DNA of 64,000 nucleotides, taken from the NCBI GenBank assembly GCA_965197905.1, contig CBDAOB010000005.1, positions 1,792,001-1,856,000 on the forward strand. Reading direction: 5' to 3'. Below are positions 1 to 39,303 of the stretch, one piece after another. The notes beneath the pieces were generated by a model. The model was not told the origin of the DNA, searched no databases, and saw only the letters and a program-made list of their open reading frames with translations. How positions within the stretch are numbered: the stretch's first letter is position 1; every line of letters begins with the position of its first letter. Source of the stretch: Candidatus Latescibacterota bacterium (lineage in GTDB: Bacteria; Latescibacterota; UBA2968; UBA8231). A program made the translations under genes and the position numbers.

Positions 1-1617
1 CAAACCCAGATTGTTCAACGTCTCCGGGTCACCGGGCGCAAGCCGTAACGCACGGTCGTACGAGCTCCTCGCAGCCTCTATGCCTCCGGCGCGATGATGG
101 GCCAGACCGGTGTTGGTGTGCGCCGCTAGGTGGAGCGAATCGATCGCAGTTGCCCGCCTCAGTACCGCCAACCCTTCAACGAATGCACCCTTGTTCACCA
201 ATAGACTGCCCAGATTGTTGTGCATTCCGGCAAGGTGAGGTTGTAGCTCAACTGCTTTTCGAAAGGCAGATTCCGCGCCGTCCAGATCTCCTCTCTCCTC
301 AAGAGCCAGACCTAGGTTGTTCCAGGTCTTTCCGTACCCCGGATTCAGGGCAACTGCGCGCCGGAGTGTTTCCACGGCAAGGGCCGGTTGACCTCGGTTG
401 AGTTGGGCCAGTCCAAGGTTGCTCCGAACCCGAAACATCCGGGGCGCTTTCCTGGCGGCATCACTCCACAGGGTGTATTCGTCGACCCATGACGTATTGC
501 GCTGCATCGAAAGCAACGACCACAACACTAGTAGAATCAACCCGGGGACCAGGAGTCGGGTGCGATGGCGCCTGGCGCATAACCACACCGTCCCCACGAC
601 GGCCAACAGCACGCCAACCGATGCCAGGTACAGTCTGTGCTCGCTCACCAGCACATTTAGGGGAAGAAAAAAGGTGGGAGCCATACAGGCGAAGAACCAG
701 GCGGACCCTATGGCTGCGGGCTCGCGAACTTTGAGTGAGCGGCAGGTAAGGAATCCGATGCTGCACAACATTATCAAGGCGGCAACCACCGCCGGGTCGC
801 CGAACCCAACGCTTTCCTCAAACGCATGTTCTACGCTCTGGCCGATCGGCACCAACAGCAGTTTTGCGTAGTAGACGAGCCCCTTTGTCTGGGTCGCCCA
901 TTGGGCGACCCACGGGCGAACCTCCTGAGCCAGGGATTTGGGCAGGAAATCGTTCATCCAGATGACACCGAGATACAGCACCGTCACCGACCAGAAAGGT
1001 AGGTGCCACAAGGTCGACTTGCCGGGGCTGATTTTCGGTCGTCGATAGAGCAGCAACAGCGGTAGGAGTGCGATTGCCGTCGACTTGGTGAGCAGGGCGA
1101 ACGCGTAGCTTGCAACCGACCACACGCGACGATATCCGTACGCCACCCCGCACATTGCCAATAGCACGCCGGCCGCGCTTAGTGAGACAGAACGGCTGCT
1201 GATGTAGTTGACCGCCTGGGTCTGAATCGGATGGACCGCAAACAAAACACCACCCCAAAAACCGACCCATTTGCCCTGCCAATTGGCAAGAATCAGAAAT
1301 GTCAGAATGGCGACGACACCGTGGATCGCGATGTTGGTGCCTAGGTATCCCCGCGGCTCGTACTCACCGGCCGCGTAATTGAAAGCGAACGAGCTGACCA
1401 GAACCGGTCGGTACATCGCCATGGTGGGCTCGCCCGAAAAGGTCTCTGGCTCCAGGAAGAAGCTTGGCAGGTTGGCCAGGCTGCGAATGTGGGGATTTTC
1501 GACAATGGAATGGCTGTCGTCGTAGTGAAACGAATTCTGGAAGCTGTTGGCGTAAACGGCGACGATCAGCGCCAAGATGGCCAGTGCGAGCACATCTTTT
1601 CGAGACGTGACGATCAT
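1..1617 (-). CDS. TMTC-like GT-C glycosyltransferase with TPRs, paralog 1 (3' end runs off the window; absent from the ORF track)
   Basis: Manual translation from ATG at 1617 (ATGA overlap with the paralog 2 stop) is open to base 1: NSFHYDDSHSIVENPHIR, MYRPV, HPIQTQAVNYISSRSV, TQTKGLVYY, PLNVLVSEHRLYL, then NNLG-type TPRs. Confidence 0.85.
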   Translation of the reverse strand, partial: MIVTSRKDVLALAILALIVAVYANSFQNSFHYDDSHSIVENPHIRSLANLPSFFLEPETFSGEPTMAMYRPVLVSSFAFNYAAGEYEPRGYLGTNIAIHGVVAILTFLILANWQGKWVGFWGGVLFAVHPIQTQAVNYISSRSVSLSAAGVLLAMCGVAYGYRRVWSVASYAFALLTKSTAIALLPLLLLYRRPKISPGKSTLWHLPFWSVTVLYLGVIWMNDFLPKSLAQEVRPWVAQWATQTKGLVYYAKLLLVPIGQSVEHAFEESVGFGDPAVVAALIMLCSIGFLTCRSLKVREPAAIGSAWFFACMAPTFFLPLNVLVSEHRLYLASVGVLLAVVGTVWLCARRHRTRLLVPGLILLVLWSLLSMQRNTSWVDEYTLWSDAARKAPRMFRVRSNLGLAQLNRGQPALAVETLRRAVALNPGYGKTWNNLGLALEERGDLDGAESAFRKAVELQPHLAGMHNNLGSLLVNKGAFVEGLAVLRRATAIDSLHLAAHTNTGLAHHRAGGIEAARSSYDRALRLAPGDPETLNNLGL

Positions 1618-3515
1618 CGAGCACTGCGCAGCAATCGCCTGGCCAACTCGACACCACGCTTGCTCTTCTCGTAAGCCGGGTTGATTTTCCAGGACTGCAT
1701 GAAAAAGCTCTCGGCCTGCTTGAAAAACTCTTGACCGTCCTCACCACTTCGCATCGCTTGCTGCCCCAAAGTGATGTAGAGATTGCCCAGATTGTTGAGC
1801 GCGTTGTAGGCACGCGGATTCAGCCCCACGGCTTTTCGGTAGGCCGCGTCGGCGTGTTCGAAGGCGCCGACGTTAAACAGGGCAAACCCCATGTTCCCAT
1901 ACGCCGCGGAATGATTCGGCAAAATCTTCAGCGCCTCGCCGTACTGTTCGATAGCCGTTGTCAGCAGCTCCTTTCGACGAATATCTCCGTCGGGCAATCC
2001 GAGCGCTCGCTGTTGGTAGGTGTTCCCCAGATTTACGAGGGCATCGGCGTACACCGGATTCAGCTCCAATGCCTTCCTGTAAGCCTCTTCCGCTTCCGCA
2101 TAGTTCCCCAGTTCGAAATTTACGCTGCCGAGATTGTTTAGAGACCGTATGGCCAGCACGTCGTCTGGCTTGACCTTGATCGCACGGCGGTAAGATGCGG
2201 CGGCCGCGCTCCAATGCCGTTTTGTGGCGACCGGGTCGAACGAGGTTCGGGCATCGTGGGTATGAGCGTTGCCCATATACAGGTGCACCCGGGGCATTTG
2301 AGGCGCCTTTGATACGGCGTCGGTCCAGAGAGTAAAATCGGTGCGCCAATCTTGATTGCGCAGGTAGGTTAGCGAGGTGAGAATCAGCAGCAGCACGGCG
2401 ACGGCAGCCATGCGTCCCTGGCGAAACCGGTGCCGGGATTCGATGGCTCGGTTGAAGAGCACCCCCAAAACGATGCAGAACGCGCCGCATGCGAGATAAA
2501 GTCGACGTTCATTCACCAGAACATTCAGCGGAATCACGCTGGCCGGCAAGAGGCTGACGACGCCCCAGAATCCAAGAAAGAACGGTAGCTTCCATCCCGC
2601 AGCTGCAAAGCGGTAAAGCAGAAACAACAGGCTGACCAGGAAGATGCCGGGCAAAATTACAGCGAGCTCGAACCCTGCATGGTGCTCGAAAAACTGGTGC
2701 TCCACGTTTAGCCCCCAGGGCCACAGGAGCAGTTTCGCGTAGTAAGCGATCGCTTTTGTTTGGGTGAATAGCTGCGTGTCGCCGTTCCTTACATGGTTGT
2801 CGAGCGAGCTGACCAGGAAACCGTTCAAGCGAATCAGGAGGAGATATCCCACGCCGGTTGCCCAAAAAATGAGGTGCCACGGGTAAAACCGATGGCGAAA
2901 AAATCGCTTCAGGTCGAACCCAGATACGAACGCAAGTTCATACGCCAGCAACACGGCGGGAAGGGTAATGACCGTGGATTTGCTGAGAAGCCCGAGTGCC
3001 AGGGCAGCCCACGATGCCAACATATACCTCAAACGCGACGCCGGCCCGGCGCGCACCAGAAAGCAGATCCCGGCGAGGTAGAACATTCCCGAAAAGCTTT
3101 CACTTCGACTGCTTATGTAGTTCACCGGCTCGGTAGCCAGCGGATAGATTGCGAAGAGAAGACCACATATGAAGCTGGCGCCGCTTCGCCCGTGCAACAA
3201 CATGCATAGCCAGGACAGCAAACAGGCGTTGACCGCGTGCAAGGCGATGTTGACAACGTGATACCCGTAAACCTCGTATTCGCCCCACGCGTAATTAAGG
3301 GCGTATGTGACCAGCAACAATGGACGGTACATGCCCTTATCGGCATCGACCGAAAACATCCCGGGAGTCGTAAAGAAGGACGGAATATTGGCGACGTCCC
3401 GCACATTGATGTTGTATTGGATGGAATGCTCGTCATCGTAGTGGAAACTGTTACTCAGGGTATTGGCAAACACCGCCGCACAAACGAGCAGGATAATCGC
3501 GCACTGCCTACTCAT
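1614..3515 (-). CDS. TMTC-like GT-C glycosyltransferase with TPRs, paralog 2
   Basis: FHYDDEHSI, MYRPLL, TEPVNYISSRSE, PLNVLVNERRLY, multiple hydrophobic helices, C-terminal TPRs; 633 aa. Confidence 0.85.
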   Translation of the reverse strand: MSRQCAIILLVCAAVFANTLSNSFHYDDEHSIQYNINVRDVANIPSFFTTPGMFSVDADKGMYRPLLLVTYALNYAWGEYEVYGYHVVNIALHAVNACLLSWLCMLLHGRSGASFICGLLFAIYPLATEPVNYISSRSESFSGMFYLAGICFLVRAGPASRLRYMLASWAALALGLLSKSTVITLPAVLLAYELAFVSGFDLKRFFRHRFYPWHLIFWATGVGYLLLIRLNGFLVSSLDNHVRNGDTQLFTQTKAIAYYAKLLLWPWGLNVEHQFFEHHAGFELAVILPGIFLVSLLFLLYRFAAAGWKLPFFLGFWGVVSLLPASVIPLNVLVNERRLYLACGAFCIVLGVLFNRAIESRHRFRQGRMAAVAVLLLILTSLTYLRNQDWRTDFTLWTDAVSKAPQMPRVHLYMGNAHTHDARTSFDPVATKRHWSAAAASYRRAIKVKPDDVLAIRSLNNLGSVNFELGNYAEAEEAYRKALELNPVYADALVNLGNTYQQRALGLPDGDIRRKELLTTAIEQYGEALKILPNHSAAYGNMGFALFNVGAFEHADAAYRKAVGLNPRAYNALNNLGNLYITLGQQAMRSGEDGQEFFKQAESFFMQSWKINPAYEKSKRGVELARRLLRSAR

Positions 3516-5496
3516 TATCGCCCGGTTCCGAGAGTCGCTGGAGTCTGGCCTTTGTGCGCCGGCTCATATCCGGGTCCTGGCTCAGAGACAACAAACGCCG
3601 GTAGGCCGCGGCGGCCTCGTTGTTCCTGCCGGCAGATTCCAACACATTAGCCAGCTGGAGGAATCCTAGTTCGAACGTCGGGAAATCTGCGACTAGCCGT
3701 TGATTCTGGTCGATGCTTTCGCTGTACCGTCGTTGCTGGAACAGCGCTACGGAGCGAAAGAACTGCGCCTCGGCCGTCGGCACATAACCTGCAAGAAGCG
3801 AAGCGCAAACGGACTCCACGTCGGCGTCGCTGCCCGTTTGTAGCAATTGTTGCGCAAGGCGGTTGAAGTTCTCCGCGGCATCTTTGCTTTCAGGATTGAC
3901 CGCAAGAGCGCGCCCGTAATAGAAAAGGGCGCTGTCGGTCCGGGATTCCTTTTCGTGGAGGGTGCCTAGGTTGTTGGCAACCAACTCGAAATGCACGCTG
4001 GTGTCCGTGATGGTCAGATAGACGCCGCGAGCACGCTCGCTGTGGCCGCTTCGTTGCAGAGCCCTGGCTAGATTGTAACGCACCTCCATCGCATCCTTCT
4101 TCTGGTGCAGGAGTCGTTCATATATAGCGATCGCCTGCTCCTGGTCTCCCATGGCATCGAAGACCGTGGCGAGGTTGTTCTGTGCCGCAGTGTGCTCGGG
4201 ATCGACTTCCAGGGCTTGCTCGAAGTACCCCACTGCCTCGGACATGCGCCCGGCATCTTTGGCATAATTTCCAAGATGCACGTACGCTACCGGTATGAGG
4301 GGGTGGGGTGATTTTCGCGCCGCGTCACTCCACAGGGTGTGTTCGTTTTCCCAAACATCGTTCCGCCGTACCACCAGCAGCCCAAGCAGAACGACCAGCA
4401 CAATCAGCGGCATCTGCAATCGTCGCAGCTGCCCCGGTGGAATTGAGCTGCCGATGATGATCAGCCCAATCAATGGCAGATAGAGACGGTGATCATTTAC
4501 GAGGACGTACAGCGGTACCACGGACGCCGGCGCCAGAGTGATCGCAAACCAGAGGAGTCCGAACAGCCGAATGCCCCTGCGCTCTCCGGGAGATGAAACG
4601 GCAACGGCAAAACTCAGAAGCAGCAGCAAGAACAGAAGGATGACTGGCCCTATCCCCGACTCGAAGAACTGGTGATGCACGTTCAAACCGATGGGAAAGC
4701 AGAGCAGCTTGGCGTAGTAGACCCAGGCTTTTATCTGGGTTCCCAGTTGCACATCCCAGGAGCGAACAGGGGCGTCCAGAACCGCCTTGCGAAGAAAGGA
4801 ACTCACGAGGGCAAGATAGAGGACGGAACAGAAGCCGTAGGGCAGATATCGTTGCCAGGTCCTCGCGATCGATCTGCCGGTCGTGAGATCGCGAACGAGA
4901 ATTAATGCGGGCAGGGCGATTCCCACCGATTTGGCGAGTAGTCCGAGAACAAAACAGCTTACAGAGCCAATGTAGGCGGTCCTCCCTGAAGCCCACGAGC
5001 GCTCGTACAACCAGAAGCTGGCTACCACGAACAAACCGGCCATTAGCTCCGAACGGCTGCTGATGTAGTTGACAGGCTCCGTTCCGATGGGATGCAAAGC
5101 GAACAATAGCGCTCCGAAGAAACAAAACGATCCGTTCACGTTCATCGACCCCAGAAGACACCATACGAGAAGGCTCGTGGCCGCATGCATGAGGATATTG
5201 ACGACATGATAGGAGTATACCTGGCGCTCACTCCAGACATAGTTGAGCGCAAATGAGGTGAGTAACAGGGGTCGATACATTCCCTTGTCAGCGTCCCTCG
5301 AGAAGAAGGCGGGATCGGTAAAAAAGGAAGGGATGAGGGATACATCCTCGATATGAGGGTTTTCCACTAGAACGTGGAGATCGTCATAGTGGAAGGAATT
5401 ATCGATGGAGTTTACGTAGACGAGCACGACGAATCCCGCAACCAAGCCGGGTGCCAGAAAGCGGCGGCTCTGTATGGCCTTGAGATCGTTACTCAT
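3508..5496 (-). CDS. TMTC-like GT-C glycosyltransferase with TPRs, paralog 3
   Basis: FHYDDLHVL, MYRPLL, HPIGTEPVNYISSRSE, VNDHRLY, TPRs; 662 aa; stop overlaps the paralog 2 start by 8 nt. Confidence 0.85.
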   Translation of the reverse strand: MSNDLKAIQSRRFLAPGLVAGFVVLVYVNSIDNSFHYDDLHVLVENPHIEDVSLIPSFFTDPAFFSRDADKGMYRPLLLTSFALNYVWSERQVYSYHVVNILMHAATSLLVWCLLGSMNVNGSFCFFGALLFALHPIGTEPVNYISSRSELMAGLFVVASFWLYERSWASGRTAYIGSVSCFVLGLLAKSVGIALPALILVRDLTTGRSIARTWQRYLPYGFCSVLYLALVSSFLRKAVLDAPVRSWDVQLGTQIKAWVYYAKLLCFPIGLNVHHQFFESGIGPVILLFLLLLLSFAVAVSSPGERRGIRLFGLLWFAITLAPASVVPLYVLVNDHRLYLPLIGLIIIGSSIPPGQLRRLQMPLIVLVVLLGLLVVRRNDVWENEHTLWSDAARKSPHPLIPVAYVHLGNYAKDAGRMSEAVGYFEQALEVDPEHTAAQNNLATVFDAMGDQEQAIAIYERLLHQKKDAMEVRYNLARALQRSGHSERARGVYLTITDTSVHFELVANNLGTLHEKESRTDSALFYYGRALAVNPESKDAAENFNRLAQQLLQTGSDADVESVCASLLAGYVPTAEAQFFRSVALFQQRRYSESIDQNQRLVADFPTFELGFLQLANVLESAGRNNEAAAAYRRLLSLSQDPDMSRRTKARLQRLSEPGDNE

Positions 5497-7387
5497 TCAG
5501 ATAGCGATCGATCTTGGATAAACGGTTCCGGACCTTTCGATAGCCCGGATTGGAATCTTCTAGCTGGCGGTAGAGCGCTCCGGCCTCCAGCAGCGGCGCA
5601 CGGCCGCTATGCTTATCTGCTCTCTCTGCCGAAGCCAGCAGAACCTCGGCCAGACTGTAGATGTAGATGGCCTCGCCGCCATTGAGCGCTACAGCCTCTC
5701 TGTAGGCGGTTCGGGCGGACTCAAGGTCTCCCAAACGCACCTGCACATTGCCCAGCCGGAAATGCGCCTCAGCGTCGTCTGGGACGAGGTTGATCGACCT
5801 CTGATACATCTCCGACGCCTCCGTGAACCTCCTACGGGCGGTGAGAGAAGCCGCCAGGTTGTAGTACGCTTCAGGAAAGTTTGGATAGAGTTGGATCGTT
5901 TTGCGATAGTAGGCAATGGCACGCTCGTGGTCTTTGGCCGCAGCGTAGATATTGCCCAGGCTGTTTAGTGCTTCCCGATACTCCGGATCAAGCTCCACCA
6001 CCTTTTCGTATTCAGCCGCCGCCGCCTGGAAGTACTGCTGGGCGTGGTTGCTGTCCGGGGCGCTCATCGCCTCTTCGTAGAGGATGTTGGCCAGGTTCGT
6101 GCGTGCCGCTCGGTGTCTGACATCCAGTTCCAATGCACGCCGATACCTCTGCTGCGCCGCGTCCCGCTTTCCTTCCAGGCGCAACGCGTTTCCCAATTCT
6201 ACATGGGCGCGCGGCATCAGAGGACTGCCCTTGGCTGCTGCTGTCCACAGGCTCACCTCGTCTGCCCAAGCGTTGTTCCGTTGGAAAGCCAGGATGAGAA
6301 AGGCCGGTAAAAGCAGATAACAAATTGCCTTGGCGGGTGCTCTGATCTGTTCGAATAAACGTGCGAAAAGGACGGCCAGAGCGACCATGGGGAGATACAA
6401 TCGATGCTCGTTGACCAGAACGTTCAACGGAACTACCAATGTGGGCGCGAGGCAAATCGGTATCCAACCCATCCAAAAGAGATTCTCCTTGGATGAAAGT
6501 CGACCCGCCAGAACCGCGAGCGACCCGAGAAACAGAAGACTCGCCACAACCGCCCCTTCCCATGGAACGTGGGACTCGAAAAACTGATGTTCCACGTTGA
6601 GTGCCACTGGCATCGACACGAGATCGACGTATTTGACGAGTGCTTTGATCTGCGTCCAAAGCTGCACGTCCAGAGCCCGAACGGGTTGTTTCAGAGAACT
6701 GCTCAGAAATCCAACTTTCCAAATGAGGATCAGATAGACTGCTGCAACACCCCAAAACCTCGCATCTCGTCGGAGTTGCCTCGCCAGGGACGCGGACTCC
6801 ACGCAGATGCCATACAAGAGCGAGATCCCCAGAAAAACCATCACAATCGATTTGGAGAGAAGGCCCAACGCGAAACAAAACAGGGCCACCCACTCCGATC
6901 CGGTTGTCTGCTGCAGCCTAAATCTGAAAGCACCGAGCAAGAAGAGCGCTGCAAGGGATTCTGAGCGGCTGCTGACGTAGTTTACCGGTTCGGTGGCAAG
7001 GGGGTGCAGAGCAAACAGGAGACTGCTGACCAGCGCGGTCCGGGTCGAAAAGCCGATCTTGAGAAGAATGCTCCAAACCAGAAGGCTGCAAGCAAGGTGT
7101 AGCACTAAGTTTGTGCTATGGAAGACCAGCGTTGAATACCCACTCCAATAGTAATCCAGCGCGTAGGTAGCCAGGAGCAACGGCCGGTACATCCCCTTCT
7201 GTGGATCGGAGGAAAACGGGCTGAGGCTGGTAAAGTATCCGGGGATGCCGTCCAGATGGCGGATATGTGGGTTTGCGACGATTGAATGAACATCGTCGTA
7301 GTGGAATCCGCCTTGCAGGGAGTTCCCATAGACCAGTGCCACTGCCAACAATAAGATCGCCGGAGCGGAGAATCGGATCGAGTTCAA
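5489..7387 (-). CDS. TMTC-like GT-C glycosyltransferase with TPRs, paralog 4
   Basis: FHYDDVHSI, MYRPLL, TEPVNYVSSRSE, PLNVLVNEHRLY, TPRs; 632 aa; TTG start overlapping the upstream stop. Confidence 0.85.
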   Translation of the reverse strand: MNSIRFSAPAILLLAVALVYGNSLQGGFHYDDVHSIVANPHIRHLDGIPGYFTSLSPFSSDPQKGMYRPLLLATYALDYYWSGYSTLVFHSTNLVLHLACSLLVWSILLKIGFSTRTALVSSLLFALHPLATEPVNYVSSRSESLAALFLLGAFRFRLQQTTGSEWVALFCFALGLLSKSIVMVFLGISLLYGICVESASLARQLRRDARFWGVAAVYLILIWKVGFLSSSLKQPVRALDVQLWTQIKALVKYVDLVSMPVALNVEHQFFESHVPWEGAVVASLLFLGSLAVLAGRLSSKENLFWMGWIPICLAPTLVVPLNVLVNEHRLYLPMVALAVLFARLFEQIRAPAKAICYLLLPAFLILAFQRNNAWADEVSLWTAAAKGSPLMPRAHVELGNALRLEGKRDAAQQRYRRALELDVRHRAARTNLANILYEEAMSAPDSNHAQQYFQAAAAEYEKVVELDPEYREALNSLGNIYAAAKDHERAIAYYRKTIQLYPNFPEAYYNLAASLTARRRFTEASEMYQRSINLVPDDAEAHFRLGNVQVRLGDLESARTAYREAVALNGGEAIYIYSLAEVLLASAERADKHSGRAPLLEAGALYRQLEDSNPGYRKVRNRLSKIDRYLNE

Positions 7388-9558
7388 TGTTTGCCTAATT
7401 CAGCGATACGATGCTCGACATGTCGCCGACGATCGTCCCTCCCATCCCAAATCCTTAGAAATGCTTGATAAACCTCCACTGCTTCGGTCGTCGAACCGGT
7501 TTTGTCAAGGCTCATAGCCAGCCCGAAGAGTGCCCTCTCATATTGCGGGCGTATCTCCAACGCCCTCCGAAACTGTCCGATCGCGTATTCGAGCTCCGCG
7601 TTGTCAGCATGAAGCTCGCCGAGTGCGGCGTGCGGCCTGGCATCGGTTGCGTCCAGCTCGGTTGCGCGTACAAAGGCGGCTTGGGCGCCATCCATCTTCT
7701 TTTGTTTCCGGAACGCTCGACCCAGGTGGTAATAATGCGCCGCGGACCCACGCCCCTGGGCGATCGCACTTTGCAAGACACTCGCTGCCGTGGAAACGTG
7801 GCTCAGCTGGAGGTGGGTGGTGGCGATGTTGATCTCTACTTCTCCTAGTTCCCTGGGCGATCTGGCAATCGCCTGCTGGTAACGCTCCAGAGCAAGCTCA
7901 TGTTTTCCTTGGGCGGACAGCACGTTGCCTAAATTGTTGTAGGGCTCTGCGAGTTTCGGGGCTAGCTCAATCGCTTTCGCGTACGCGCTTGCGGCTTCGT
8001 CGAATCTCTTCTCCTCCATGAGAATTAAGCCGTAGTTGCTCCAAGTGCTACCCTTGGCCCCATCTATACTAAGAGCCTTCTCGAACATTTGTGCCGCCGT
8101 GTCGATTTCACCCATCTTGAAATGAGCATCCCCGAGGTTGACATAGATTTCGTCGTAGTTGGGATACCAGCGCAGCGCCTCGTGGTACCACCGAATCGCC
8201 TCATTCAGATCGCCATTCTCGTGGTACAACGTCGCGACATTGTTGTAGGCATCGCCGTGGCGTGGATCGATTTCGATCGCTTTGCGGTACGCATCCAATG
8301 CTTCATCGTCCCGCCCATCCATCTGCAGAGCTCTTCCGTAGTTGGCGTGCGCCCTGCGCATCGTCGGCGCTTTCTCGACTGCATCTCCCCACAAGGTCAG
8401 CTCGTTCGCCCATATGCGGTTCCGCGCCGCCGTCTGCAACGCCAGCAGTACCAACAGGGCGACCGCTATCGGTTTCTGCACCCGGCGCAGTGCGTACGCG
8501 AAAATCCATGCTGATCCTGCAACTACCAGGTAGAGACGTCGCTCGTTGACCAGCATGTTAAGCGGCATGACCGAGGCGGGTAACAAGACGACGAGATTCC
8601 ACAGTATGAAGAAGCTCAAGGGGGGACGGCGCCCCCATTTCAAAGCCAGTAGGACCAATCCGACCACGAGGAAAAAACCGAGAATCACCACGGCTTCCTG
8701 CCAACTGTTCGACGCCCGGAACTGATGCTCCACGTTGAGTCTGTTGGGGACAAAGAGCAACTGCAGGTAGTACGGGATCGCTTTCAGCTGGGTCCACACC
8801 TGAGTATCTACGGATCGAACCGGAGCCCCAAGTGATTTGGGTAAGAATCCGGAGAGCCACAAGACAGACGTATATAAACCCAGCCCGATCCAATAGGGAG
8901 CGTGCAGCCCAATGAACGGGCGCCAGACGAATCTCGCCGAGTTGAGCCGCCGTTGCGACAGGTCAAAGACGAGTAGAACCGCTGGCAGAGTCGCGACCGT
9001 CGCCTTGGTCAGCAAGCCCAGCGTGCATGCGATCACCGCCTTCCAGCATCCGCCCACTCTGCCGCTGTCGCGATGGATGGCGAAATAGTAGAAGGAACCC
9101 AGATAGCAAAGGGCCGCCAGGCTTTCGCTGCGGCTGCTGACGTAGTTGACCGGCTCTGTACAGATGGGATGTACGGCGAAAAGGAGCCCGCAAAGCAGGC
9201 CTGCCGATCCTCCGATCAACAGACTCCCTATCCGGGCAACGAAGATCGAGCAACCCAGATGAATCAGCAGATTCACCAGGAGATATCCCCATACCTCGTA
9301 TTCCCCTGCCGCGTAGTTCAGGGCGAAAGTCGCCAACAAGACCGGTCGATACATCCCCTTTTCCCGGTCGGTGGAAAACAGCTCCATGTCGGTGAAATAT
9401 GCGGGAATATTTGCCAGGCTGCGGACAGCCGAATTCTCCACTATGGAGTGAAAATCGTCGTAGTGGAATGAACCACTCAAAGAATTGGTGTAGCAGGCAA
9501 AACACGTGAGAGCGATCGCGATGATCTGCCTGGATTCCCCGCCTGCCCTCAATCTCAC
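7384..9558 (-). CDS. TMTC-like GT-C glycosyltransferase with long TPR array, paralog 5
   Basis: FHYDDFHSI, MYRPV, TEPVNYVSSRSE, PLNMLVNERRLY; longest TPR tail; 724 aa. Confidence 0.85.
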   Translation of the reverse strand: MRLRAGGESRQIIAIALTCFACYTNSLSGSFHYDDFHSIVENSAVRSLANIPAYFTDMELFSTDREKGMYRPVLLATFALNYAAGEYEVWGYLLVNLLIHLGCSIFVARIGSLLIGGSAGLLCGLLFAVHPICTEPVNYVSSRSESLAALCYLGSFYYFAIHRDSGRVGGCWKAVIACTLGLLTKATVATLPAVLLVFDLSQRRLNSARFVWRPFIGLHAPYWIGLGLYTSVLWLSGFLPKSLGAPVRSVDTQVWTQLKAIPYYLQLLFVPNRLNVEHQFRASNSWQEAVVILGFFLVVGLVLLALKWGRRPPLSFFILWNLVVLLPASVMPLNMLVNERRLYLVVAGSAWIFAYALRRVQKPIAVALLVLLALQTAARNRIWANELTLWGDAVEKAPTMRRAHANYGRALQMDGRDDEALDAYRKAIEIDPRHGDAYNNVATLYHENGDLNEAIRWYHEALRWYPNYDEIYVNLGDAHFKMGEIDTAAQMFEKALSIDGAKGSTWSNYGLILMEEKRFDEAASAYAKAIELAPKLAEPYNNLGNVLSAQGKHELALERYQQAIARSPRELGEVEINIATTHLQLSHVSTAASVLQSAIAQGRGSAAHYYHLGRAFRKQKKMDGAQAAFVRATELDATDARPHAALGELHADNAELEYAIGQFRRALEIRPQYERALFGLAMSLDKTGSTTEAVEVYQAFLRIWDGRDDRRRHVEHRIAELGKH

Positions 9559-9559
9559 T

Positions 9560-11403
9560 TTACCTCTGCGCGGATGGTTTACTCGTTGGTTTTATCGCCG
9601 CAGCTCGCTTGAGTGCGTTCCTGGCATCATCCCTCCGACCGAGTCGGGCGTACAGCCCACCCATATTCAACCAGGCCTCCGCGTACTGCGGATCGAGGCT
9701 TACGGCCTCGGCGTACGCCGCTTCTGCGTTATCGTGGGATTGCATCATCTGGTGTGCGTTCCCTGCGTTGAGCCAACTGCGCGGGTCGGAGGGTTCCACC
9801 TCGATAGCCTTCATATGATGGATCAATGCTTCGTTCGGTTGGTTCAACAACTGGTAGAGATTCCCAGATTGTTCCGTAGGCCACCATCTTCGGGGTCGAG
9901 TTCAACGGCTCTGAGATAGGCATCGCGGCTTGCGTGAAAGTCCCGACTTCGCCGGTGCTGCTCGCCCAACGCTTCCCATAGATCGGCATTCTCAGGAATC
10001 GCCGCCACTCCCCTTCTCAATACCCCAACGGCAGCTCTCTCATTGCCGTGGGCCCGATGCAGCACGGCGAGACGGATATAGGCCGGCCCAAATCCAGGAT
10101 CTCGTATCAATACCGTCTCGAACTCCTTCATGGCCCTTGCGAGATTTCCATCCTCGAAATGTGCATCACCTAAGAAGATGTGAGGCCGTGCCATTAGCGG
10201 CGCTTTAGAGGCGGCATCCTCCCATAGGTCATAGGCGCTTCCCCACACCGTGTTCCGCTGTGTCGTAGCAACCCCGAGCAGTCCGATCAAGACCACAGGT
10301 ATCATGCCCCGTATTCGACGCCGCCCGTGGGACGACCCAAACCGCTTCAACGTCAACCCGGCTACGAGCGCGAAAGAAACCGAGGGAAGGTATAGCCGGT
10401 GTTCGTTAACGAGAACGTTTAAAGGGATCAACGAGGATGGCGCCAGTACGATCAGGAACCAGGCTATACTAAACAGATATATCGGTTTGGAACGGGCAGC
10501 ACCAAAGGCCACAAAAAGGAGAGACAAGACAAACAAACCAGCGGGACCCGAGATCGGGTCAAACGGAGTATCCGATATGAGGAATTGGTGATCGATAGTC
10601 AGTCCGGTGGGAACAGCCAGCAACTTCAGATAGAATACCAACGCCTTTATCTGCGTAGAGATCTGCTCTGGAAGCGAGCGCACCGGAGCCCCAAGACTTG
10701 CTTTGTGCAGGAAGCTCCACACGATCCACAGATAGCCTGCAGCGAGAACAGCCAGAGCCGCATAGAGGGCCGTCCTACCCTCCCGTCCCGTCCTGCAGCG
10801 GATCAATAGATCGCGAGTCCACAGAACCGCTGGCAATACAAACACGATCGATTTACTCAGTAGGCCGGCGGCGAAGGCGCCCCACACACTTGGGTATCTA
10901 TAGGCGCCGCCTTCCCTGATAGTGGCAAGGTGAAACGCCAACAGAAAAAACAATGCGGCGAGGATCTCAGATCGACTGCTGATGTAGTTGACCGCCTCGG
11001 AGTTCACCGGATGTACGCCGAAAAGAAGGGCACCAATCAACGCCGGCTTGGTTTCGTTCAACAGCGCCCGCCCCAATACAAAGACCAACAGTCCACATAG
11101 ACCGTGAATAACCACGTTGACGAGGTGATAGCTCCACGTCTTCCTGCCGCTGATTGCGTAGTTGAAAGCAAACGTCGAAAGTAGCAACGGGCGGTACATC
11201 GCACTCTCCGGAATCTCCGAAAATAGCGTCGGATCGGAAAAGAATTGGGGAACGTTAGCCAACGAGCGAATGTGTGGATTGTCTGCTATGGAGTGAAAGT
11301 CATCGTACTGGAACGGATTCGACAGCGAGTTCGAGTACACCAGGACCGGCGCGAGGAACACGAGCAAGATTTTCCAACGTTCTACGCTAGACAAGCTACT
11401 CAT
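9560..11403 (-). CDS. TMTC-like GT-C glycosyltransferase with TPRs, paralog 6 (1-nt frameshift near 9861-9865)
   Basis: ORF 9844-11403 has FQYDDFHSI, MYRPLL, SEAVNYISSRSE. Adding one base to CTGGGAATC restores the TPR NNLGNLYQLLNQPNEAL and joins ORF 9560-9850. Confidence 0.8.
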
Positions 11404-13287
11404 TCAACCTCGTTCGAGTAATCGGTCCGTGATCCAAGCTCGCCAATTCTCCACCTAACGTGGTCGGCAATGGCGTCATCCCCATCCCACAGGGAGAGAA
11501 AAAGACGGTGGTTGGACACCGCCTGGGCTAATCGATTGCTGTGTTCCATGAGCAGCGCTAGATTGTAGTACGGTTTGGCGTATGACGGATCGATCTCGAT
11601 GGCGCGCAGGTAAGCAGCCTCCGCCTCGTCGAGCCGTTTTTGTCCTTCGAGCGCACCGCCCAGGTTGAAATGAACGGTCGCCGCCCGATCGTCGATCGCC
11701 AGCGCCTGCCGAAACGCGCGCGCCGCTTCTCGGAACCGGTTCATCCGCAGAAGCGTGGTGCCCATGTTGTTGAACGTTTCCTCTCTGTTGAGGCTTCGAG
11801 ATAGCGCAGCTTGGTAAAGTGCCAAGGCCTCGGCCAAGCGGTCCTGCCTACCCAGCAACGTAGCGAGATTTATCTGCGCCTCGAGATTTCCCGGCTGCAA
11901 TTCCAACGCCCGGCGAAAACTCGCTTCGGCTTGCTGCGGCTGTCCAGAGTCCATCTGGACAAGGGCGCGCTTCCCCCAGGCCGCTGAACTTTCGGGCTCC
12001 AACGCAAGAGCCCGGTTGATCACCCTCTCCGCTTTCTCGACCTCACCGGCGGTCCGGAACAAACGTCCCAGATTCAACAGCGGGCGACTCATGAGCGGAG
12101 CCTTCATCTGGGCATCCAACCAAAGGCTCTGCTCGGTCGCCCACACCTTGTTTCTGTCAACCGTCAATAGGAGAAGCGGAATGACGCAAATGCCGGAGAG
12201 ACGGACGGCGAGGGTCTTACGCTCCAGTCGGGATAGCAACCACGCGGCCAAACCAATCGCTCCGGCGAGGACCAGGTAAAGACGTCTCTCATTTACCAGA
12301 ACATTCAACGGCACAACGAACGTGGGCAATGAGACGATCGTTATCCACGCGATCCAAAAAAAACACCGAGGTGACCACCTGCCTACGCCGCCAAGTCAGC
12401 ACCAGAACTAATGATATCACACCCAAAGCTGGCCATACGATCGCAAACGGCTTCGCGGCGCTCGCCTCGAAGAACTGGTGCTCGACACTAAGTGAGAAAG
12501 GAGACACGATCAGCGTCGCGTAGTAGACAATGGCCTTCAACTGGGTAGCCTACTGAACCCACATCGAACGCAGCGGTGCGTCCATTACCGCCTCACGAAG
12601 AATCCCCTGCACCGCGAGCAGGTAGATAATTGCGATCGCCGCGTGCGGGATCAATCGCCTTAACCTGAGATTCAGCGCACGATTCCCGAAGTGGTCGTGG
12701 CAAAATAGAAGGGCAGGAAGTCCGATTACGGTAGATTTGGCCAGAAGGCCCAACCCGTAGCAACAATAGGAAAGCACTGGATACCCTTCCTTCTTCCTTA
12801 TATAGCCGTACAATGCGGCCAGGAAAAAGAATGCAGCCAGTGACTCGGACCTGCTGCTGATGTAGTTGACCGGTTCGGTCGTGAGGGGATGAGAAGCGAA
12901 CACCAAAGCCGCAACCAGGGATGCTGGTTTGCCAGTCCCAAGCTGTAACAACAGAAAATAGAAGGCAATTGCAGACCCGGCGTGAATAGCCAGATTGACC
13001 AGATGGTATCCTCCGACGTCATATCTGCTGAAGCGGTAGTTCAGCGCATAACTGACCAAAACCAGAGGGCGGTACATATCACTACCGACGTTTCTCGAGA
13101 AAAGGCTCGGATCTACGAAGAACGACGGGATGTTCTCTAACGCGCGAATATGGGGATTCTCGAGAATGGAGTGTTCGTCGTCAAAATGAAAACTGTTTTC
13201 GAGGCTATTTGAAAAGGCAACTGCGCACATGACCGAAACGAATAATACGGCGACGATATGTCGTTGAAGATCGGATCGAGGTGCCAT
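11400..13287 (-). pseudogene. TMTC-like paralog 7, interrupted by an in-frame TAG (12550-12552) and a frameshift in a T8 run (12356-12363)
   Basis: FHFDDEHSI, MYRPLV, TEPVNYISSRSE, then WVQ*ATQLKAIVYY in frame. Removing one T gives VFFWIAWITIVSLPTFVVPLNVLVNERRLY followed by TPRs. May be sequence error. Confidence 0.7.
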
Positions 13288-14465
13288 CAGAGTTCCAGCA
13301 AACGTCTTCCAAGGGCAAGAAAGTGGGGTTCAGCGGCATATTTGTGCCGCTCACGCATCAGATTCAGATGCATGCGCTCACGGACTTTGAAATCAAGCAT
13401 GGTGACCAGTCTTTCGGCAACCGTCTCGGGCGACTGAGGATCGGCTACCAATCCGAAGTCCTCCCGTTCGATCAGTCCCTGGGCGCTGCCCTGAGGCAAT
13501 GCCCCCAGAACGGGACGGGCATGTGCGATGTGCTCGTAAAGTTTACCTGGAATGGCGTAGGCATAGTCGGAGGAAGCTAGCGAGAGATAACATATGTCGG
13601 CCGCGATTAGTTTTGCACTCACCTCTCCTGCATTGAGATACCCCCCGTACTTAACTATCTCATTAAAGCGGGATCCCAGGCGATTTCGTCGATAGTGATT
13701 GTCCGGGCCGTAGATTATGATCTCAAACCTCTGGGTGTATTGAGGTTCCCGCGCGCGCAAGATCTCCACCGCATCGAAGATTACTTCAAGTCCCTGGGCG
13801 CCCGATATCGAGCCGATGTATACAATCCGAACCTTCTCCTCCTCGCAGTAAGACGTCTCTTCCGGGATCTCCCAAAACCCATTTGGCGTCAATTGAACGT
13901 CCTCGCGGTTCAGGTCGTATCGACCAATGAGATTGTCTGCTACCTCCTGAGTGGCCACCGAAATAACGGAGGCCTGCTGGACAACCCATTTCTCGCACCA
14001 GTGTGCCCACGGAGATTGCAGCCCTTTCGCGAGGCCGCGGTATTCATCCCTGAAATCGAGCACTAATCTTGCGCCGGTATCGCGTGCTGCCATAGCCGCT
14101 GCGAGATGATCTGTTACGGGCGGATAGAGGCTGAAAATCACGTCATTTGACGATGAAGCGATGCGGGCTGCGGCACGTGCCGCGGGCCGCAGCCAATTGA
14201 TATGGGGACACGGCGCGAGACCGGTTCTAAAAAGTACTTCGCCGGTCAAATACCAGGGAATCGCTCGCGGTCGGTGCACTGGAATATCGTCGGTGGCCGG
14301 AAGGGTATCTGGATCGTTCACAAACGATCCGAGCGCACGCGAGACGTTGCCGTGGGCTACGATTTCTACGTCACAGCCGGCGTCGGCCAGGTATCGTGCA
14401 AACTGATAGCGTCTGTAGGTCCGGGCCAGAGGCGGAAAATAGCAGGTTACGAAACATACCTTCAT
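13287..14465 (-). CDS. Glycosyltransferase family 4 (GT-B)
   Basis: MKVCFVTCYFPP N-terminus, VYIGSI and IPGKLYEH motifs; coupled to TMTC genes on both sides. Confidence 0.85.
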   Translation of the reverse strand: MKVCFVTCYFPPLARTYRRYQFARYLADAGCDVEIVAHGNVSRALGSFVNDPDTLPATDDIPVHRPRAIPWYLTGEVLFRTGLAPCPHINWLRPAARAAARIASSSNDVIFSLYPPVTDHLAAAMAARDTGARLVLDFRDEYRGLAKGLQSPWAHWCEKWVVQQASVISVATQEVADNLIGRYDLNREDVQLTPNGFWEIPEETSYCEEEKVRIVYIGSISGAQGLEVIFDAVEILRAREPQYTQRFEIIIYGPDNHYRRNRLGSRFNEIVKYGGYLNAGEVSAKLIAADICYLSLASSDYAYAIPGKLYEHIAHARPVLGALPQGSAQGLIEREDFGLVADPQSPETVAERLVTMLDFKVRERMHLNLMRERHKYAAEPHFLALGRRLLEL

Positions 14466-16270
14466 TGCTTAGCCGTGCGCGCCTCGCCGGCGCGAGCCTG
14501 CTGGACGAATTTCCCGTACTCGGCTTCCTTGCCAAGCAGGTTTACAGCCCGACCAAACGCAGCGTGGGCTCGATCGGACTCCCCGTTCCCTTCAAACATG
14601 CGAGCCAGATTCAACCATGCCCCACCCAACTCTGGATCCTGGGGTTGCGGCCAATACAACGAGTCCGCGACAGCAAGCTCGTACTGCGCCAACGCCGCAT
14701 CGCGGTCTCCCTGAGCCTCGTAAGCCTGTCCCAAATTGTTTCTCGCTTTGACAAAACGGGGATCAATTTCCAGGGCCCTCGCGAATTGGGCGCCCGCTTT
14801 TTCCGCCTGTCCGGTACCCATGAATAGATTCCCGATGTTGTGATAGACCCCGGGAAGCTGAGAATTGTATGTCAGAGCTGTCCGGTACGCCGCCTCCGCC
14901 TCCTGGATTTTGGCTTGCTCGCTCAGGATATTCCCTTTGAGTACCCAACCCTCCGCGAAGTCCTGACGTAGTTGCAGTCCGGCTTCCAATTCAGCTAGTG
15001 CCTTGGCCGACTCCCCCCTTTTGTGGTATGCGATAGCCAGGTTCAATCGCGAACGCGGCATCAACGGTGACTTGCTCACAGAATCTTTCCATATAGTGAC
15101 CTCATCACTCCAGACCTCGTTTCGGCCAATGCTCAAGAGCGAAAACAGCACGCATAGAATACCGCCGATGACCATGGCGGATGTCGGTTTTACCCGAAAC
15201 AACTGATACCACGCCCACACGGAAATCAGCAAGATTCCGGCACTGGACAGGTACACCCTACGCTCGCTCACAAGGATATTCAGAGGCACGATGGAGGCAG
15301 GAAGAAGCGTAATCAAGAACCAGCCGATTCCAAATCTAAGATACCTGTCACCCACCTTGAGGATGAAGAGAACCGATGAGCCCAGGAACAGGGCCGATAA
15401 AACCACAACAGGCCCCAGCTGCCGGCCACTCTCAACAAACTGATATTCGATGTTCAGATTGATAGGAACGACAGACATCCAGACGTAATAAACCAATGCC
15501 TTTAGCTGCGTGAGCAGCTGGATATCGATCGCACGAGGCATCTTGTCGATGGAGCTCTGAACGTACCGGTTGCTCCAGATTACCACCACATAAAGGAGCG
15601 AGAGAAGTGTCAGCGTCCAATACTTATTCCATTCAACGCCTATGGCGCGAGCGGTCTTCGAAACACCGAAACGGCTCGATTCCCAGGCGAAAGTGGCAAG
15701 GGGGATGGTGATTGCGACCGATTTGGAAAGGAGCCCCGTGACAAATATGAAATGTCCGAGAATTAACGATCGGACGCTAACCCCTAATAAGAGCGTTGTG
15801 GCGGATAAGTAGCAGAGCGAAACGAGCAGGTCCGAACGACTGCTGAGGTAATTGATCGGCTCACTATGTAGTGGATGCACGAGAAAAACCAACCCGGTTG
15901 CGATGCCCAGGACCTCGGATCCCATTTTGCGGAGCAACAGGAACAGACCGAACGAGCAGAGTATGTGGAGTACCAGGTTTGTGACTCTGTAACCCCACAC
16001 CTCTTGGCCATGCAGGGCATAGTTCAAAGCAAGGGAGATGGAGGTCAGTGGCCGAAACATGTACCCATTGGGCTGGCTCGAAAAGGTGTGTGGATCGAGC
16101 ACGAAACGCTCCATCTGATCCAACGACCTGATGTGGGGATTGTACTGGATAGAATGGAAATCATCGTACTGGAAAGGATTTGACAGGGAATTGAAGTATA
16201 GGGCCGAGCCAATAGCGGCAAGAAGTACGAGAACGGCAATGAATCGCAGAATAGGTGCTCTATTTTTCAA
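14462..16270 (-). CDS. TMTC-like GT-C glycosyltransferase with TPRs, paralog 8
   Basis: FQYDDFHSI, MFRPL, HSEPINYLSSRSD, PLNILVSERRVY, TPRs. Start placed at TTG 16270 overlapping the upstream stop; the ORF track extends to 16378. Confidence 0.8.
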   Translation of the reverse strand: MKNRAPILRFIAVLVLLAAIGSALYFNSLSNPFQYDDFHSIQYNPHIRSLDQMERFVLDPHTFSSQPNGYMFRPLTSISLALNYALHGQEVWGYRVTNLVLHILCSFGLFLLLRKMGSEVLGIATGLVFLVHPLHSEPINYLSSRSDLLVSLCYLSATTLLLGVSVRSLILGHFIFVTGLLSKSVAITIPLATFAWESSRFGVSKTARAIGVEWNKYWTLTLLSLLYVVVIWSNRYVQSSIDKMPRAIDIQLLTQLKALVYYVWMSVVPINLNIEYQFVESGRQLGPVVVLSALFLGSSVLFILKVGDRYLRFGIGWFLITLLPASIVPLNILVSERRVYLSSAGILLISVWAWYQLFRVKPTSAMVIGGILCVLFSLLSIGRNEVWSDEVTIWKDSVSKSPLMPRSRLNLAIAYHKRGESAKALAELEAGLQLRQDFAEGWVLKGNILSEQAKIQEAEAAYRTALTYNSQLPGVYHNIGNLFMGTGQAEKAGAQFARALEIDPRFVKARNNLGQAYEAQGDRDAALAQYELAVADSLYWPQPQDPELGGAWLNLARMFEGNGESDRAHAAFGRAVNLLGKEAEYGKFVQQARAGEARTAKQ

Positions 16271-18058
16271 CCGTTGGCAAAGTCTCCCGCATTTCTCGCA
16301 GCGCCTGCTCGGCTGTGCCTTCGAAGGCAGTCCCCCTTCCGGCAATACTGAGTGCTGCGAAGGCTTGGCGTGCTTCAACGTTCTTACCTAACCGTCGGTA
16401 GGCAGTGCCAAGCGCCAGCCAAGTTGCTGGATAACTCTCTATCTCCAAAGACGTCTTGAAGTTGCCTGCCGCCCCCTCGATCTTCCCCGAGACCAATTGC
16501 TGTAGCCCCAGCTTGTACAATCGCTGCGCTTCGGGGTCTCTTTCGTCTATTTGGAATGCCAGTAACCCCTCCAAGGCTTCACGCGACTTTCGATAACTCG
16601 GATCCACATCAAGAGCCTTTTGATACCAACTCACAGCTTCGGTGAATCTCCCATAGACAAGTGCATCGAACCAAGATTGTTAAAGATCACTACCTCGTCT
16701 CCAGCGCTTAAGACACCGGGGTGAACATCGAGAGCTGTTTGATAGTGCCTCAGTGCCATCTGGTCGCGACCAGCGTTGCGATGGTGGTCGCCCGCATAGA
16801 CGTGGGGTCGCGGCATTCGAGGTGATCTTCGAAGGGAATCGCCCCATAGCGATTCAGCGCTTTCCCAAACTACCATTCGACCGCGATCGAGAACGCTGTA
16901 GACAAGCAAGAGTGCGCCCACGGCGATCGCCACCACCGGTCGATCCGCAGCATGGACAGAGACTATGCCTACAACAACACCGAACGTTATCATGGGCAGG
17001 TAAAGTCGATGTTCATTTACCAAAACATTCAACGGGACGACGGTTGCGGGAAGGAGAAAAAGAACCGACCAAATTGCCCAAAAAAAAGAGAGCCGCCAAG
17101 ACGCTTGGTAGTGATCCCGATGACCGCACATGAGGCGAACACAAGCAGTGATCCGATTACTGCGAATTCAAAAAACGATGATGATAGGTTGAACTGGTGT
17201 TCCACGTTCAGGTTATGGGGAATGAAAAGGAGCTGAAGGTAATAAATCAGAGCCTTGGACTGTGTTGCCAGCTGCGTCACAAGGTCCCTGACCGGGTAGA
17301 AAACCAAAGCTTCGGCGGCCAAGTCTATCGTTACCGCAAGGTAGGCAATGGTCAGCGTCCAAAACGGCCAGTGCAATCGGGCACACAAACCCAATATTCC
17401 GATCAGCGACTCTCGTCGTTTTAAGTGCACCTCAAGAGCCAACAGCGCCGCAGGGACAACAACGGCGACGGACTTTGAGCCCAGCGCGGCGGCAAAGCAG
17501 AATACGCTTAGAACAAGGCGGATTTGAGGTGCGCTTGTAAGGCGAGCGTGCGTGTAAAGTACCAAGCCGCACAAACAGAACAAAGCACATAAGGATTCTG
17601 ATCGGGCACTTATGTAGTTCACCACCTCAGCGTTTGCAGGGTGGACGCAGAATATCGACCCGGCTGCGAGGCTTACTAGATAGTTTCGATTAACAGCCTT
17701 GACCAGGTGAAACACCAAAAGGCTGTTAAGCAAATGAATCCCGAGATTAGTCAAGCGAAAGAATGTGGGGTCGTATCCATGAATCTTGAAATTCAAAGCG
17801 TAGGTCAGCAGAACAAGGGGCCGGTACATCGCGCTGTTGGGGTCCTCGGAAAATAACCGAGCGTCCGCGACCTGGGCAAAATGCCAAGGAATTGCTGAGC
17901 GACCGGATGCTGGGATTCTCCACTATGGAATGAAAATCGTCGTACTGGAACGCCCCGGGAACAAAGATTCCATGGGCAGCAAAGCCCAGGCTAAGCAAAA
18001 GTCCATAGGCCACGAGGCAGTTTCCGAATCGAGGAGGGGCACCACCTGGCCTTACCAT
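16260..18058 (-). pseudogene. TMTC-like paralog 9, split by three frameshifts (~17880, 17080-17087, 16650-16652)
   Basis: Consecutive fragments give FQYDDFHSIVENPSIR / MYRPLV...AEVVNYISARSE / PLNVLVNEHRLY / TPRs. Two of the shifts lie in T8 and G3 runs. May be sequence error. Confidence 0.7.
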
Positions 18059-19190: not shown

Positions 19191-19216
19191 TGACTATTGT
19201 TGCCAGATCGGTCGGT

Positions 19217-21345: not shown

Positions 21346-21349
21346 GGCG

Positions 21350-23200: not shown

Positions 23201-23207
23201 GTCAGCG

Positions 23208-24970: not shown

Positions 24971-24980
24971 ATTTCCGTTG

Positions 24981-26888: not shown

Positions 26889-26908
26889 AACGTCCAGGCG
26901 CCGCCTTT

Positions 26909-28860: not shown

Positions 28861-28883
28861 TTCCCCTTTCCTAGTAAAACATG

Positions 28884-33006: not shown

Positions 33007-33031
33007 TTGCCGCCCATTCGAACCCGAACTG

Positions 33032-33784: not shown

Positions 33785-33943
33785 CCCGTCAAGACTCGAA
33801 ACAAGCTAGGTCGAAGAATCCGTGCATCTTGTAATACGCCGCAACGGTCCACGCGAGGACACTGCAGCGCACGGCGATTAGCACCAGGCTCTTCCACATT
33901 CTGGAAACGTACCTGTCCGTCGCACTTTCCAAGCACCGCGAAG

Positions 33944-35035: not shown

Positions 35036-35244
35036 AGTTCGACGGACCGCCCGACAACGAGTTTGGCGCGAGAATATCCGGCTTTTAGCCGTGCAGTTGT
35101 AACAATCGAGAGGGGAACCAGATTCAAGGGATGTGGATTAAAAGCGATTCGAAATATCGTGTAATCGGTGGGAGTCGGACGACTCGGAAAATGAGAGCAG
35201 AGCATGTCGATACGACTCCCGTTCAACCCATCAAAAAGCAAATA

Positions 35245-39293: not shown

Positions 39294-39303
39294 GTCGCCC
39301 TCG

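Follow-up and report, generated by a model that had tools for sequence, protein, structure and literature searches.

The stretch of DNA analysed here (hereafter the window, 64,000 nucleotides, G000:C5:1792001-1856000) comes from a Candidatus Latescibacterota bacterium whose genome, G000, comprises 6.7 Mb in five contigs. It carries nine homologous genes, numbered T1 to T9 from base 1 and all located on the minus strand at positions 1-18058, each encoding a membrane domain followed by tetratricopeptide repeats (TPRs), and three further paralogs, T10 to T12, at 57245-64209. This array is real, old and under selection. Judged by sequence, its members form a derived clade within a very large family of proteins resembling the animal glycosyltransferases TMTC1-4. 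The balance of evidence tips slightly towards a reading in which most of the paralogs would act in parallel as periplasmic O-glycosyltransferases, each modifying a domain or site of its own on large secreted surface proteins from the same locus. The observations behind it are the one-to-one orthology of the paralogs, the purifying selection acting on them, the GT-C glycosyltransferase fold of a model, the invariant DD, R, K and E-x-R-x-Y residues, and the joint loss of paralogs and surface proteins.

Orthology, age and selection of the array

Each position of the array is an ortholog group of its own across about ten genera of one family. The membrane-domain tree (128 domains, taken from G000 and 12 relatives) places every gene position (slot) in a cross-genus clade of its own; the TPR tails, 112 of which were put in another tree, yield 12/12 slots with support of 0.97 or more, with one chimera. 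Both trees were built without partial matches under 280 profile positions, and four fetched sequences as well as six unlinked homologs from G000 itself bear no slot label in them. The best cross-genus match belongs to the same slot for 117/118 membrane domains, a partly circular count since the labels come from the membrane tree, and for 111/112 TPR tails, a count independent of the labels. Furthermore, the order T9-T8-[AsnB]-T7...T1 recurs in five genomes that had not been used for labelling, with 44/44 top matches in agreement. This order is not absolute: G007 has an extra copy, G015 an inserted unrelated GT-C gene, and G074 lacks T1, T3 and T4. A natural chimera was also seen in G006 (L011, G006:C8:29658-31652), where a T2 membrane domain is joined to a T4-type TPR tail.

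The length of the tail is specific to the slot (medians 158-335). Comparison with the relative G002 gives dN/dS values of 0.08-0.20 for the membrane domains and 0.09-0.31 for the TPRs, slightly above most of the housekeeping controls (0.06-0.16). Among the 40 columns most specific to a slot, 29 lie on the outer loops, which account for 161/362 columns (Fisher p = 0.0002, for columns that are not independent of one another); these counts exclude G001 and G000. The clade (E <= 1e-85) was found in 35/63 genomes of one family and in 0/87 genomes from 13 other families of the phylum.

An initial annotation of the window, made from its sequence, had proposed an old expansion in which each paralog retains a distinct role, and the slot clades in both trees, the slot-specific tails, the dN/dS values of 0.08-0.31 and the loop residues all speak for it. 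Separate phylogenies of the two domains, dN/dS per paralog and a genome-wide copy count had been suggested as checks. The phylogenies both resolve the slots across genera, each paralog is under purifying selection, and the count amounts to 18 full-domain homologs in G000 at >=125 bits (the 12 paralogs, T13 and five others), weaker matches coming in addition. T13, the thirteenth member of the same clade in this genome, is unlinked (C5:1226295). Assembly duplicates are ruled out by the identities of the 12 membrane domains (31.6-44.0% over 66 pairs) and neutral copies by dN/dS values of at most 0.31.

The same annotation had counted nine homologous paralogs in 1-18058 and 12 copies in the window, and both counts were recovered, all nine being minus-strand genes for membrane and TPR proteins that retain the DD motif ascribed to them. 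Its description as a tandem array holds only in part, the run of nine homologs being split between T8 and T7 by a GT4 glycosyltransferase gene (13287-14465). The junctions that it listed exist (ATGA at 1614-1617, 11400-11403 and 14462-14465; overlaps of 8 nt at 3508-3515 and 5489-5496), the one at 14462-14465 joining T8 to the GT4 gene and not to a further paralog. The overlaps on which it based translational coupling are real as well, but they also occur between non-TMTC genes of the operon, so that they are not special to the array. Two further statements had to be corrected: the array does not go on past base 1, where only T1 extends (to -533) and lepA comes next with no tenth paralog, and the proteins span about 600-724 aa (T8 has 602) instead of 632-724 aa.

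The features of the locus are the following.

1..1617, minus strand: T1, TMTC-like GT-C membrane domain and TPRs; runs on to -533; 716 aa; lepA is next
1614..3515, minus strand: T2, 633 aa; full-length in both informative genomes without cargo
3508..5496, minus strand: T3, 662 aa
5489..7387, minus strand: T4, 632 aa; AlphaFold pLDDT 96.6, 11 long N-terminal helices and TPRs in the model, ArnT as top fold match
7384..9558, minus strand: T5, 724 aa
9560..11403, minus strand: T6, 614 aa once an assembly error at 9862 is corrected
11400..13287, minus strand: T7, recent pseudogene in the G000 strain (TAG at 12550-12552; frameshift in the A8 run 12356-12363)
13287..14465, minus strand: GT4 glycosyltransferase within the array; slot taken by an AsnB-type gene in other genera
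14462..16270, minus strand: T8, 602 aa from the TTG at 16270
16260..18058, minus strand: T9, about 600 codons; assembly error at 17871 and uncorrected frameshift at the A8 run 17080-17087
18060..38348, minus strand: variable sugar-tailoring cassette with GT4s, methyltransferases, AsnB-type amidotransferases, deacetylase, PGA_cap, radical SAM and acetyltransferase
38349..43357, minus strand: conserved core with two GT2 genes, oxidoreductase, methyltransferase and GT4; candidate donor makers
44146..46474, minus strand: conserved exported protein without Pfam family, presumably an outer-membrane protein, and small TPR protein; both lost with the module
46369..49274, minus strand: candidate cargo 1, cadherin-like repeats (Big_9/Cadherin_4/5-type) and type IX secretion system (T9SS)-type C-terminal domain
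49535..56235, minus strand: candidate cargo 2, giant secreted protein with dockerin-like and FlgD-Ig/T9SS C-terminal domains
57245..58954, plus strand: T10, divergently transcribed; shortest tail; motif M5 without acidic residue
60023..62032, minus strand: T11, 669 aa; full-length in the cargo-less genome G082
62344..64000, minus strand: T12, start at 64209; 621 aa

Fold, motifs and kinship with TMTC proteins

The Pfam domains recognized on the array proteins are TPRs, together with a weak PMT_2. PF08409 (TMTC_DUF1736) matches 0/11 array membrane domains at E <= 5, NCBIfam has no name for any of these domains, and searches of the sequences of solved structures with the array proteins gave no match. 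The sole PF08409 match in the G000 genome lies outside the array (C4:72052-73869). The array profile matches this gene with 197 bits over positions 10-389, i.e., the entire membrane domain; in the Atlas, T5 is connected with a cluster of chordate DUF1736 proteins (0.92). The kinship with TMTC is read from these profile and Atlas matches. The family is large, with 88,027 clusters at 50% identity (E <= 1e-10), and the existence of prokaryotic TMTC homologs is mentioned in PMC7801869. Databases label the bacterial relatives "tetratricopeptide repeat protein" or "protein O-mannosyl-transferase", and the named close homologs are assigned by NCBI to Candidatus Latescibacterota or Gemmatimonadota.

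The AlphaFold model of T4 (116 sequences, pLDDT 96.6, pTM 0.91) contains 11 long helices before residue 375, two long loops and TPRs after about residue 392; the helix count is taken from this model, a simple hydropathy scan having found 5 segments only. In this model, the array protein has the GT-C membrane fold. Its closest matches are ArnT (5f15; Z 21.6, rmsd 3.8, 324 aligned residues), AglB (20.5), Pmt1-2 (20.1) and ALG12 (19.7), with Pmt4 also among the best, and none of the 50 fold matches listed is a TMTC or TMEM260 chain. ArnT is also given as the best template for human TMTCs (PMC7801869). ArnT, yeast Pmt1/2/4, AglB/PglB, ALG12 and AftA share the fold with Z values of 15-22 over about 310-330 residues; they differ from the array proteins by an identity of 9-14% and by the lack of a TPR arm in all of them. 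As acceptors differ among these matches, the fold does not reveal the acceptor.

Motifs were compared over 118 sequences with the TMTC motifs given in Table 4 of PMC7801869. The DD pair (D34, D35), in the first outer loop, is present in 115/115 covered sequences and is followed in all 115 by a His that is new compared with TMTC and may replace a metal ligand. K185 and R341 are found in 118/118 sequences, and R71, R143, E/D339 and Y343 are near-invariant in every slot. In M2, [YF]RP is retained with a near-invariant Arg, whereas the residues upstream are slot-specific and SHKS is absent. In M3 (RxD), the Arg is found in 117/118 sequences and an acidic third residue, mainly Glu, in 114/118. The Lys of M4 (KE(T/Q)xxT) is invariant but its Glu is present in only 18/118, Ser or Ala occupying the position in 96/118. 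The first position of M5 (DW) is Glu or Asp in 102/118 and its second is His in 100, Pro in 13 and Trp in 0. Finally, M7 (ERxxY) has its acidic residue in 118/118 and its Tyr in 117/118, the next residue being His (73) or Arg (43) and the invariant Arg standing one place further.

The array proteins thus resemble animal TMTC1-4 (CAZy GT105), as described in PMC7801869 and PMC11292533, in their module of about 11 helices, their long EL1 and EL4 loops, their C-terminal TPR arm and the matching places of the DD, YRP, R-x-[ED], K and E-x-x-x-Y motifs. In addition, animal TMTCs have cadherin acceptors, and the array has cadherin-like candidate acceptors. They differ from them by the replacement of KE by K[S/A] and of DW by [ED]H, the absence of SHKS, the post-DD His and the M7 Arg shifted by one residue. 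Other differences are the 12-13 fixed orthologs against four in animals, the lack of a PF08409 match and the bacterial setting, where a single locus also holds donor-type GT2 genes and cargo of the T9SS type. The "TMTC" label of the initial annotation is right as to homology and needs qualifying as to PF08409, M4 Glu and M5 DW. The array proteins presumably work like TMTCs, from which they depart in these three features. Other bacterial TMTC-like proteins belong to the same large family, including the five unlinked G000 homologs, which retain KE and DY and one of which is above the PF08409 cut-off. The array clade is set apart from them by its derived motifs, its fixed order, its erosion on loss of cargo and its restriction to one family.

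The loss of the M4 Glu in 100/118 sequences and the lack of an M5 acid in T10 could mean that part or most of the paralogs lack catalysis and serve as membrane scaffolds or chaperones of the cargo, joined into a hetero-oligomer with one or two active subunits (T2, T11) at its centre. Gene overlaps would suit a fixed stoichiometry, and PIG-U provides a precedent for an inactive GT-C protein (PMC7801869). We regard this as very unlikely, since each slot keeps DD, R71, R143, K185, E/D339, R341 and Y343 with hardly an exception, DD is followed by a His that is new and invariant, and paralogs can be lost one at a time.

Candidate cargo, joint loss and predicted mechanism

Upstream of the nine genes lie the cassette, the core and the genes of two large secreted proteins whose C-terminal domains are of the T9SS type, and the repeats of the first resemble bacterial cadherin-like domains (Atlas 0.96). 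They are the likely, putative targets of the array enzymes. G000 encodes a T9SS, with PorU and PorV over the cut-off. The T9SS locus (L048, C5:2576287-2601948) holds an M6-like protein, PorV and PorU beside two giant paralogs and one cadherin-like paralog of the cargo proteins. These unlinked cargo paralogs were not found in array-less genomes, whereas PorU is retained in 5/5 of them. According to PMC11292533, human TMTCs glycosylate beta-strands of cadherins, and recruitment through their TPRs has been proposed.

Both cargo families were found in 32/35 genomes bearing the clade against 0/21 tested genomes lacking it, unlinked paralogs being included and the search covering 21 of the 28 clade-less genomes of the family. 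In a one-gene tree of 27 genomes, the clade-less genomes constitute 5 separate lineages nested among array-bearing ones. G011 and G094 have an empty site (aspS-cysK-JAB-cysK-HNH-lepA), where the interleaved genes are kept and all three segments of the module are gone. In G094, the vacated site holds an autotransporter gene (L112, G094:C1:860393-866656), whose product of 2,087 aa contains numerous Ig repeats of the He_PIG type. The three clade-bearing genomes without cargo are G131, which is uninformative as its contig ends after T2, G082 and G003. G082 is 96% complete and has a single contig from lepA to aspS. Its cargo genes are deleted, T1, T8, T10 and T12 are remnants, and T3-T7 and T9 are at most short traces; T2 and T11 are full-length, and the cassette and both GT2 genes are intact. 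G003 has kept T2, plus a remnant of T7. The gene states in these two genomes show that paralogs were lost by erosion, and link ten of them more closely with the cargo than with the cassette. T2, T11 and T13, which persist without cargo, likely have other or additional acceptors. The genome lacking T1, T3 and T4 (G074; L149, G074:C163), 86% complete, also shows no unlinked cargo paralogs; in this single case, T1, T3 and T4 might serve the second locus.

In the predicted mechanism, the two GT2 enzymes would load a sugar onto polyprenyl phosphate, cassette enzymes would extend and tailor this lipid-linked sugar, and the donor would be flipped outward. The slot-specific TPR arm and outer loops would then pick an Ig- or cadherin-like domain of the cargo crossing the periplasm, and the sugar would be placed on Ser/Thr of the cargo, which would exit via the T9SS. 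The periplasmic side is assumed by analogy with human TMTC. The stronger proposal of a self-contained bacterial counterpart of the TMTC-cadherin system, with a dozen domain-specific GT-C enzymes that have a His-based active site, would each bind one Ig- or cadherin-like domain of the T9SS surface proteins by an individual TPR arm, and would use (oligo)saccharides on polyprenyl phosphate made by the locus, is tentative and on balance doubtful.

Several points weigh against parallel glycosylation of the locus-encoded proteins. The slot-specific residues may partly mirror shared ancestry of the slot and not specificity, and the metal ligands proposed for human TMTCs are changed (M4 Glu in 18/118; M5 DW to [ED]H). 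Strong matches to another secreted protein, L040, are confined to array genomes (6/14 vs 0/15), genomes without the array are poorer in tandem-95 repeats genome-wide (13/14 vs 6/15), and G009 (78% complete) has unlinked cargo paralogs with only T13. A shift of lifestyle may drive part of the joint loss. Linkage accounts for part of it as well, and the counts are inflated by kin genomes that are not independent. Both cargo genes look broken in the G000 assembly. Furthermore, the literature found, which leaves subscription journals mostly outside its coverage, gives no activity, donor or acceptor for bacterial TMTC-like proteins or arrays.

The similar distribution of other secreted proteins is one reason to envisage that the co-loss is indirect, the paralogs modifying other envelope targets (a surface polysaccharide exported by Wza/Wzz, lipid A, the target of ArnT, or many unrelated proteins) and disappearing along with the cargo as parts of a single lifestyle. 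Wza- and Wzz-like genes do lie beyond lepA, 5-8 kb downstream, ArnT is the top fold match, and T2, T11 and T13 remain without cargo. We find this quite unlikely: Wza/Wzz and the cassette remain in G082 while most paralogs erode, the slot-specific TPR arms under purifying selection fit protein partners, and ArnT is the top match of human TMTCs also (PMC7801869).

Another explanation concerns the sugars. The two core GT2 genes resemble polyprenyl-phosphate sugar synthases (best NCBIfam match AglJ, below cut-off), and the first was found in 5/5 array genomes against 0/5 array-less ones. DNA identity between G000 and G002 is 87-91% except in 16238-38307, i.e., T9 and the cassette, a block that has been exchanged; T1-T8 are 84-90% identical despite this swap. 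The paralogs could work as an assembly line, building or branching one glycan stepwise, on a lipid carrier or on a glycan that the cargo already bears, with a different sugar each, like ALG3/9/12 or mycobacterial Aft enzymes. Their fixed number and order, the GT4 or AsnB gene set between T8 and T7, the GT-C fold of ALG12 and AftA and the exchange of T9 jointly with the cassette would suit such a process, and a glycan built on the cargo would vanish with it too. However, 12 enzymes face only two conserved donor-type GT2 genes, T1-T8 are unchanged across the swap, and the G082 cassette is intact without ten paralogs. T7 has been disrupted in two independent events (a stop in G000 and IS1595 in G002) with its neighbours intact, as they are in the genome lacking T1, T3 and T4. 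Lastly, the divergence of T9 is ordinary in other within-genus pairs (62-72%). Stepwise assembly thus appears unlikely, albeit worth serious consideration, and the earlier suggestion that each paralog adds a different sugar is less supported than that of an old expansion with distinct roles, given the stability of T1-T8 and the intact cassette of G082. T9 as a cassette-specific enzyme was set aside, resting on one genome pair, and is kept as a weak lead.

A last reading concerns general O-glycosylation. The D-(S/T)-hydrophobic sequon is described in PMC10897501 as the O-glycosylation motif of Bacteroidota. Cargo 1 contains 17 such motifs against 4.6 expected, which ranks it 3 of 3,765 open reading frames, the other top ranks being exported proteins. 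Part of this excess may have a structural cause, since many of the motifs stand at the start of predicted strands. The excess would suggest that the array is the Bacteroidota-type transferase for these sequons, a possibility that we consider next to nil: in two unlinked envelope proteins, enrichment is unchanged without the array (6.2-fold in 15 genomes without vs 5.5-fold in 14 with it; 3.0 in 14 vs 3.0 in 12), which led to its rejection as a general D(S/T) transferase. The 5.5-6.2-fold enrichment, over 29 genomes, is that of a PorW-like protein, with an E(S/T) control of about 1; the loci noted for the strong enrichment in exported proteins, seen genome-wide, are L043 (C5:2239621-2242536) and L044 (C4:1793051-1796701). 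The family probably has a general sequon-directed O-glycosylation system, the array being separate from it. As regards the Bacteroidota O-glycosylation and glycosylated T9SS surface layers described in PMC10897501, G000 shares the T9SS and the D(S/T) enrichment in exported proteins. As the sequon signal does not depend on the array, the latter would be a second, dedicated system beside the Bacteroidota-type one.

If the stronger proposal of a bacterial TMTC-cadherin counterpart is true, a family that counts bacterial proteins by the tens of thousands would gain its first substrates, and fold-specific glycosylation of cadherin-like domains would seem to predate animals. It is the loss pattern and not the copy number that carries the interest, as it names testable substrates. 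Natural losses say more than mere adjacency, which has been weak evidence in other arrays: joint losses with two surface-protein families recur, empty sites keep the interleaved genes, and a genome in mid-erosion separates the cargo-dependent T1, T3-T10 and T12 from the cargo-independent T2, T11 and T13. Candidate enzymes, donor makers and acceptors can thus be named for direct reconstitution, and the twelve natural variants of TPRs and active site are material for the study of domain-specific glycosylation.

Broken reading frames and neighbouring genes

Three of the nine array genes, T6, T7 and T9, are broken in the assembly. The breaks were checked against contigs of four public runs (two samples from two studies, one of which may be the source sample). 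In T6, the contigs of 4/4 runs have one more base at 9862, which brings the protein to 614 aa, as in its G002 ortholog; this frameshift stems from an error of the assembly. In G000, T7 is a true pseudogene: its in-frame TAG (12550-12552) is present in exact-match contigs of 4/4 runs and the frameshift in the A8 run 12356-12363 in 3/4 runs, the run being one base shorter in the X4 contig. The frame of T7 is open in a sister lineage co-occurring in the same runs, and its loss is recent, as dN/dS is still 0.11-0.20. The T7 of G002 has been split independently by an IS1595 element. In T9, 7 extra bases at 17871 are missing from 3/3 covering runs and are spurious, X1 and X2 disagree on a single base at 16649, and neither of them corrects the frameshift at the A8 run 17080-17087. 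These two A8 runs are the only runs of >=7 identical bases in 1-18100, and both encode the same Phe-Phe-Trp spot in T7 and T9. Phase variation was considered for them; T7 has a stop in addition, and contigs are blind to switching.

Besides the array, cargo 1 is short by about 500 residues in the G000 assembly (orthologs of 1340-1500 aa), cargo 2 has one frameshift near 52230 (orthologs of about 2,150 aa) and an AsnB gene is frameshifted at 35840. Both cargo genes are intact in G001, G015, G099 and G107. The module of G002 carries other breaks. All these breaks may reflect early decay in the genus or long-read error.

T13 (L051, C5:1224269-1228894) has about 860 aa in relatives and is frameshifted in the G000 assembly. 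A MurJ/MATE-like gene always adjoins it; considered as a candidate dedicated flippase, this gene was intact in 2, decayed in 1 and not found in 2 of 5 array-less genomes. The cassettes of relatives (L003, L007, L020, L033, L125) carry other PMT_2-type GT-C genes, which have no counterpart in the G000 cassette. Finally, an HNH-domain gene located within the operon (43156-43665 of the window) survives the loss of the whole module in G011, G094 and G082.

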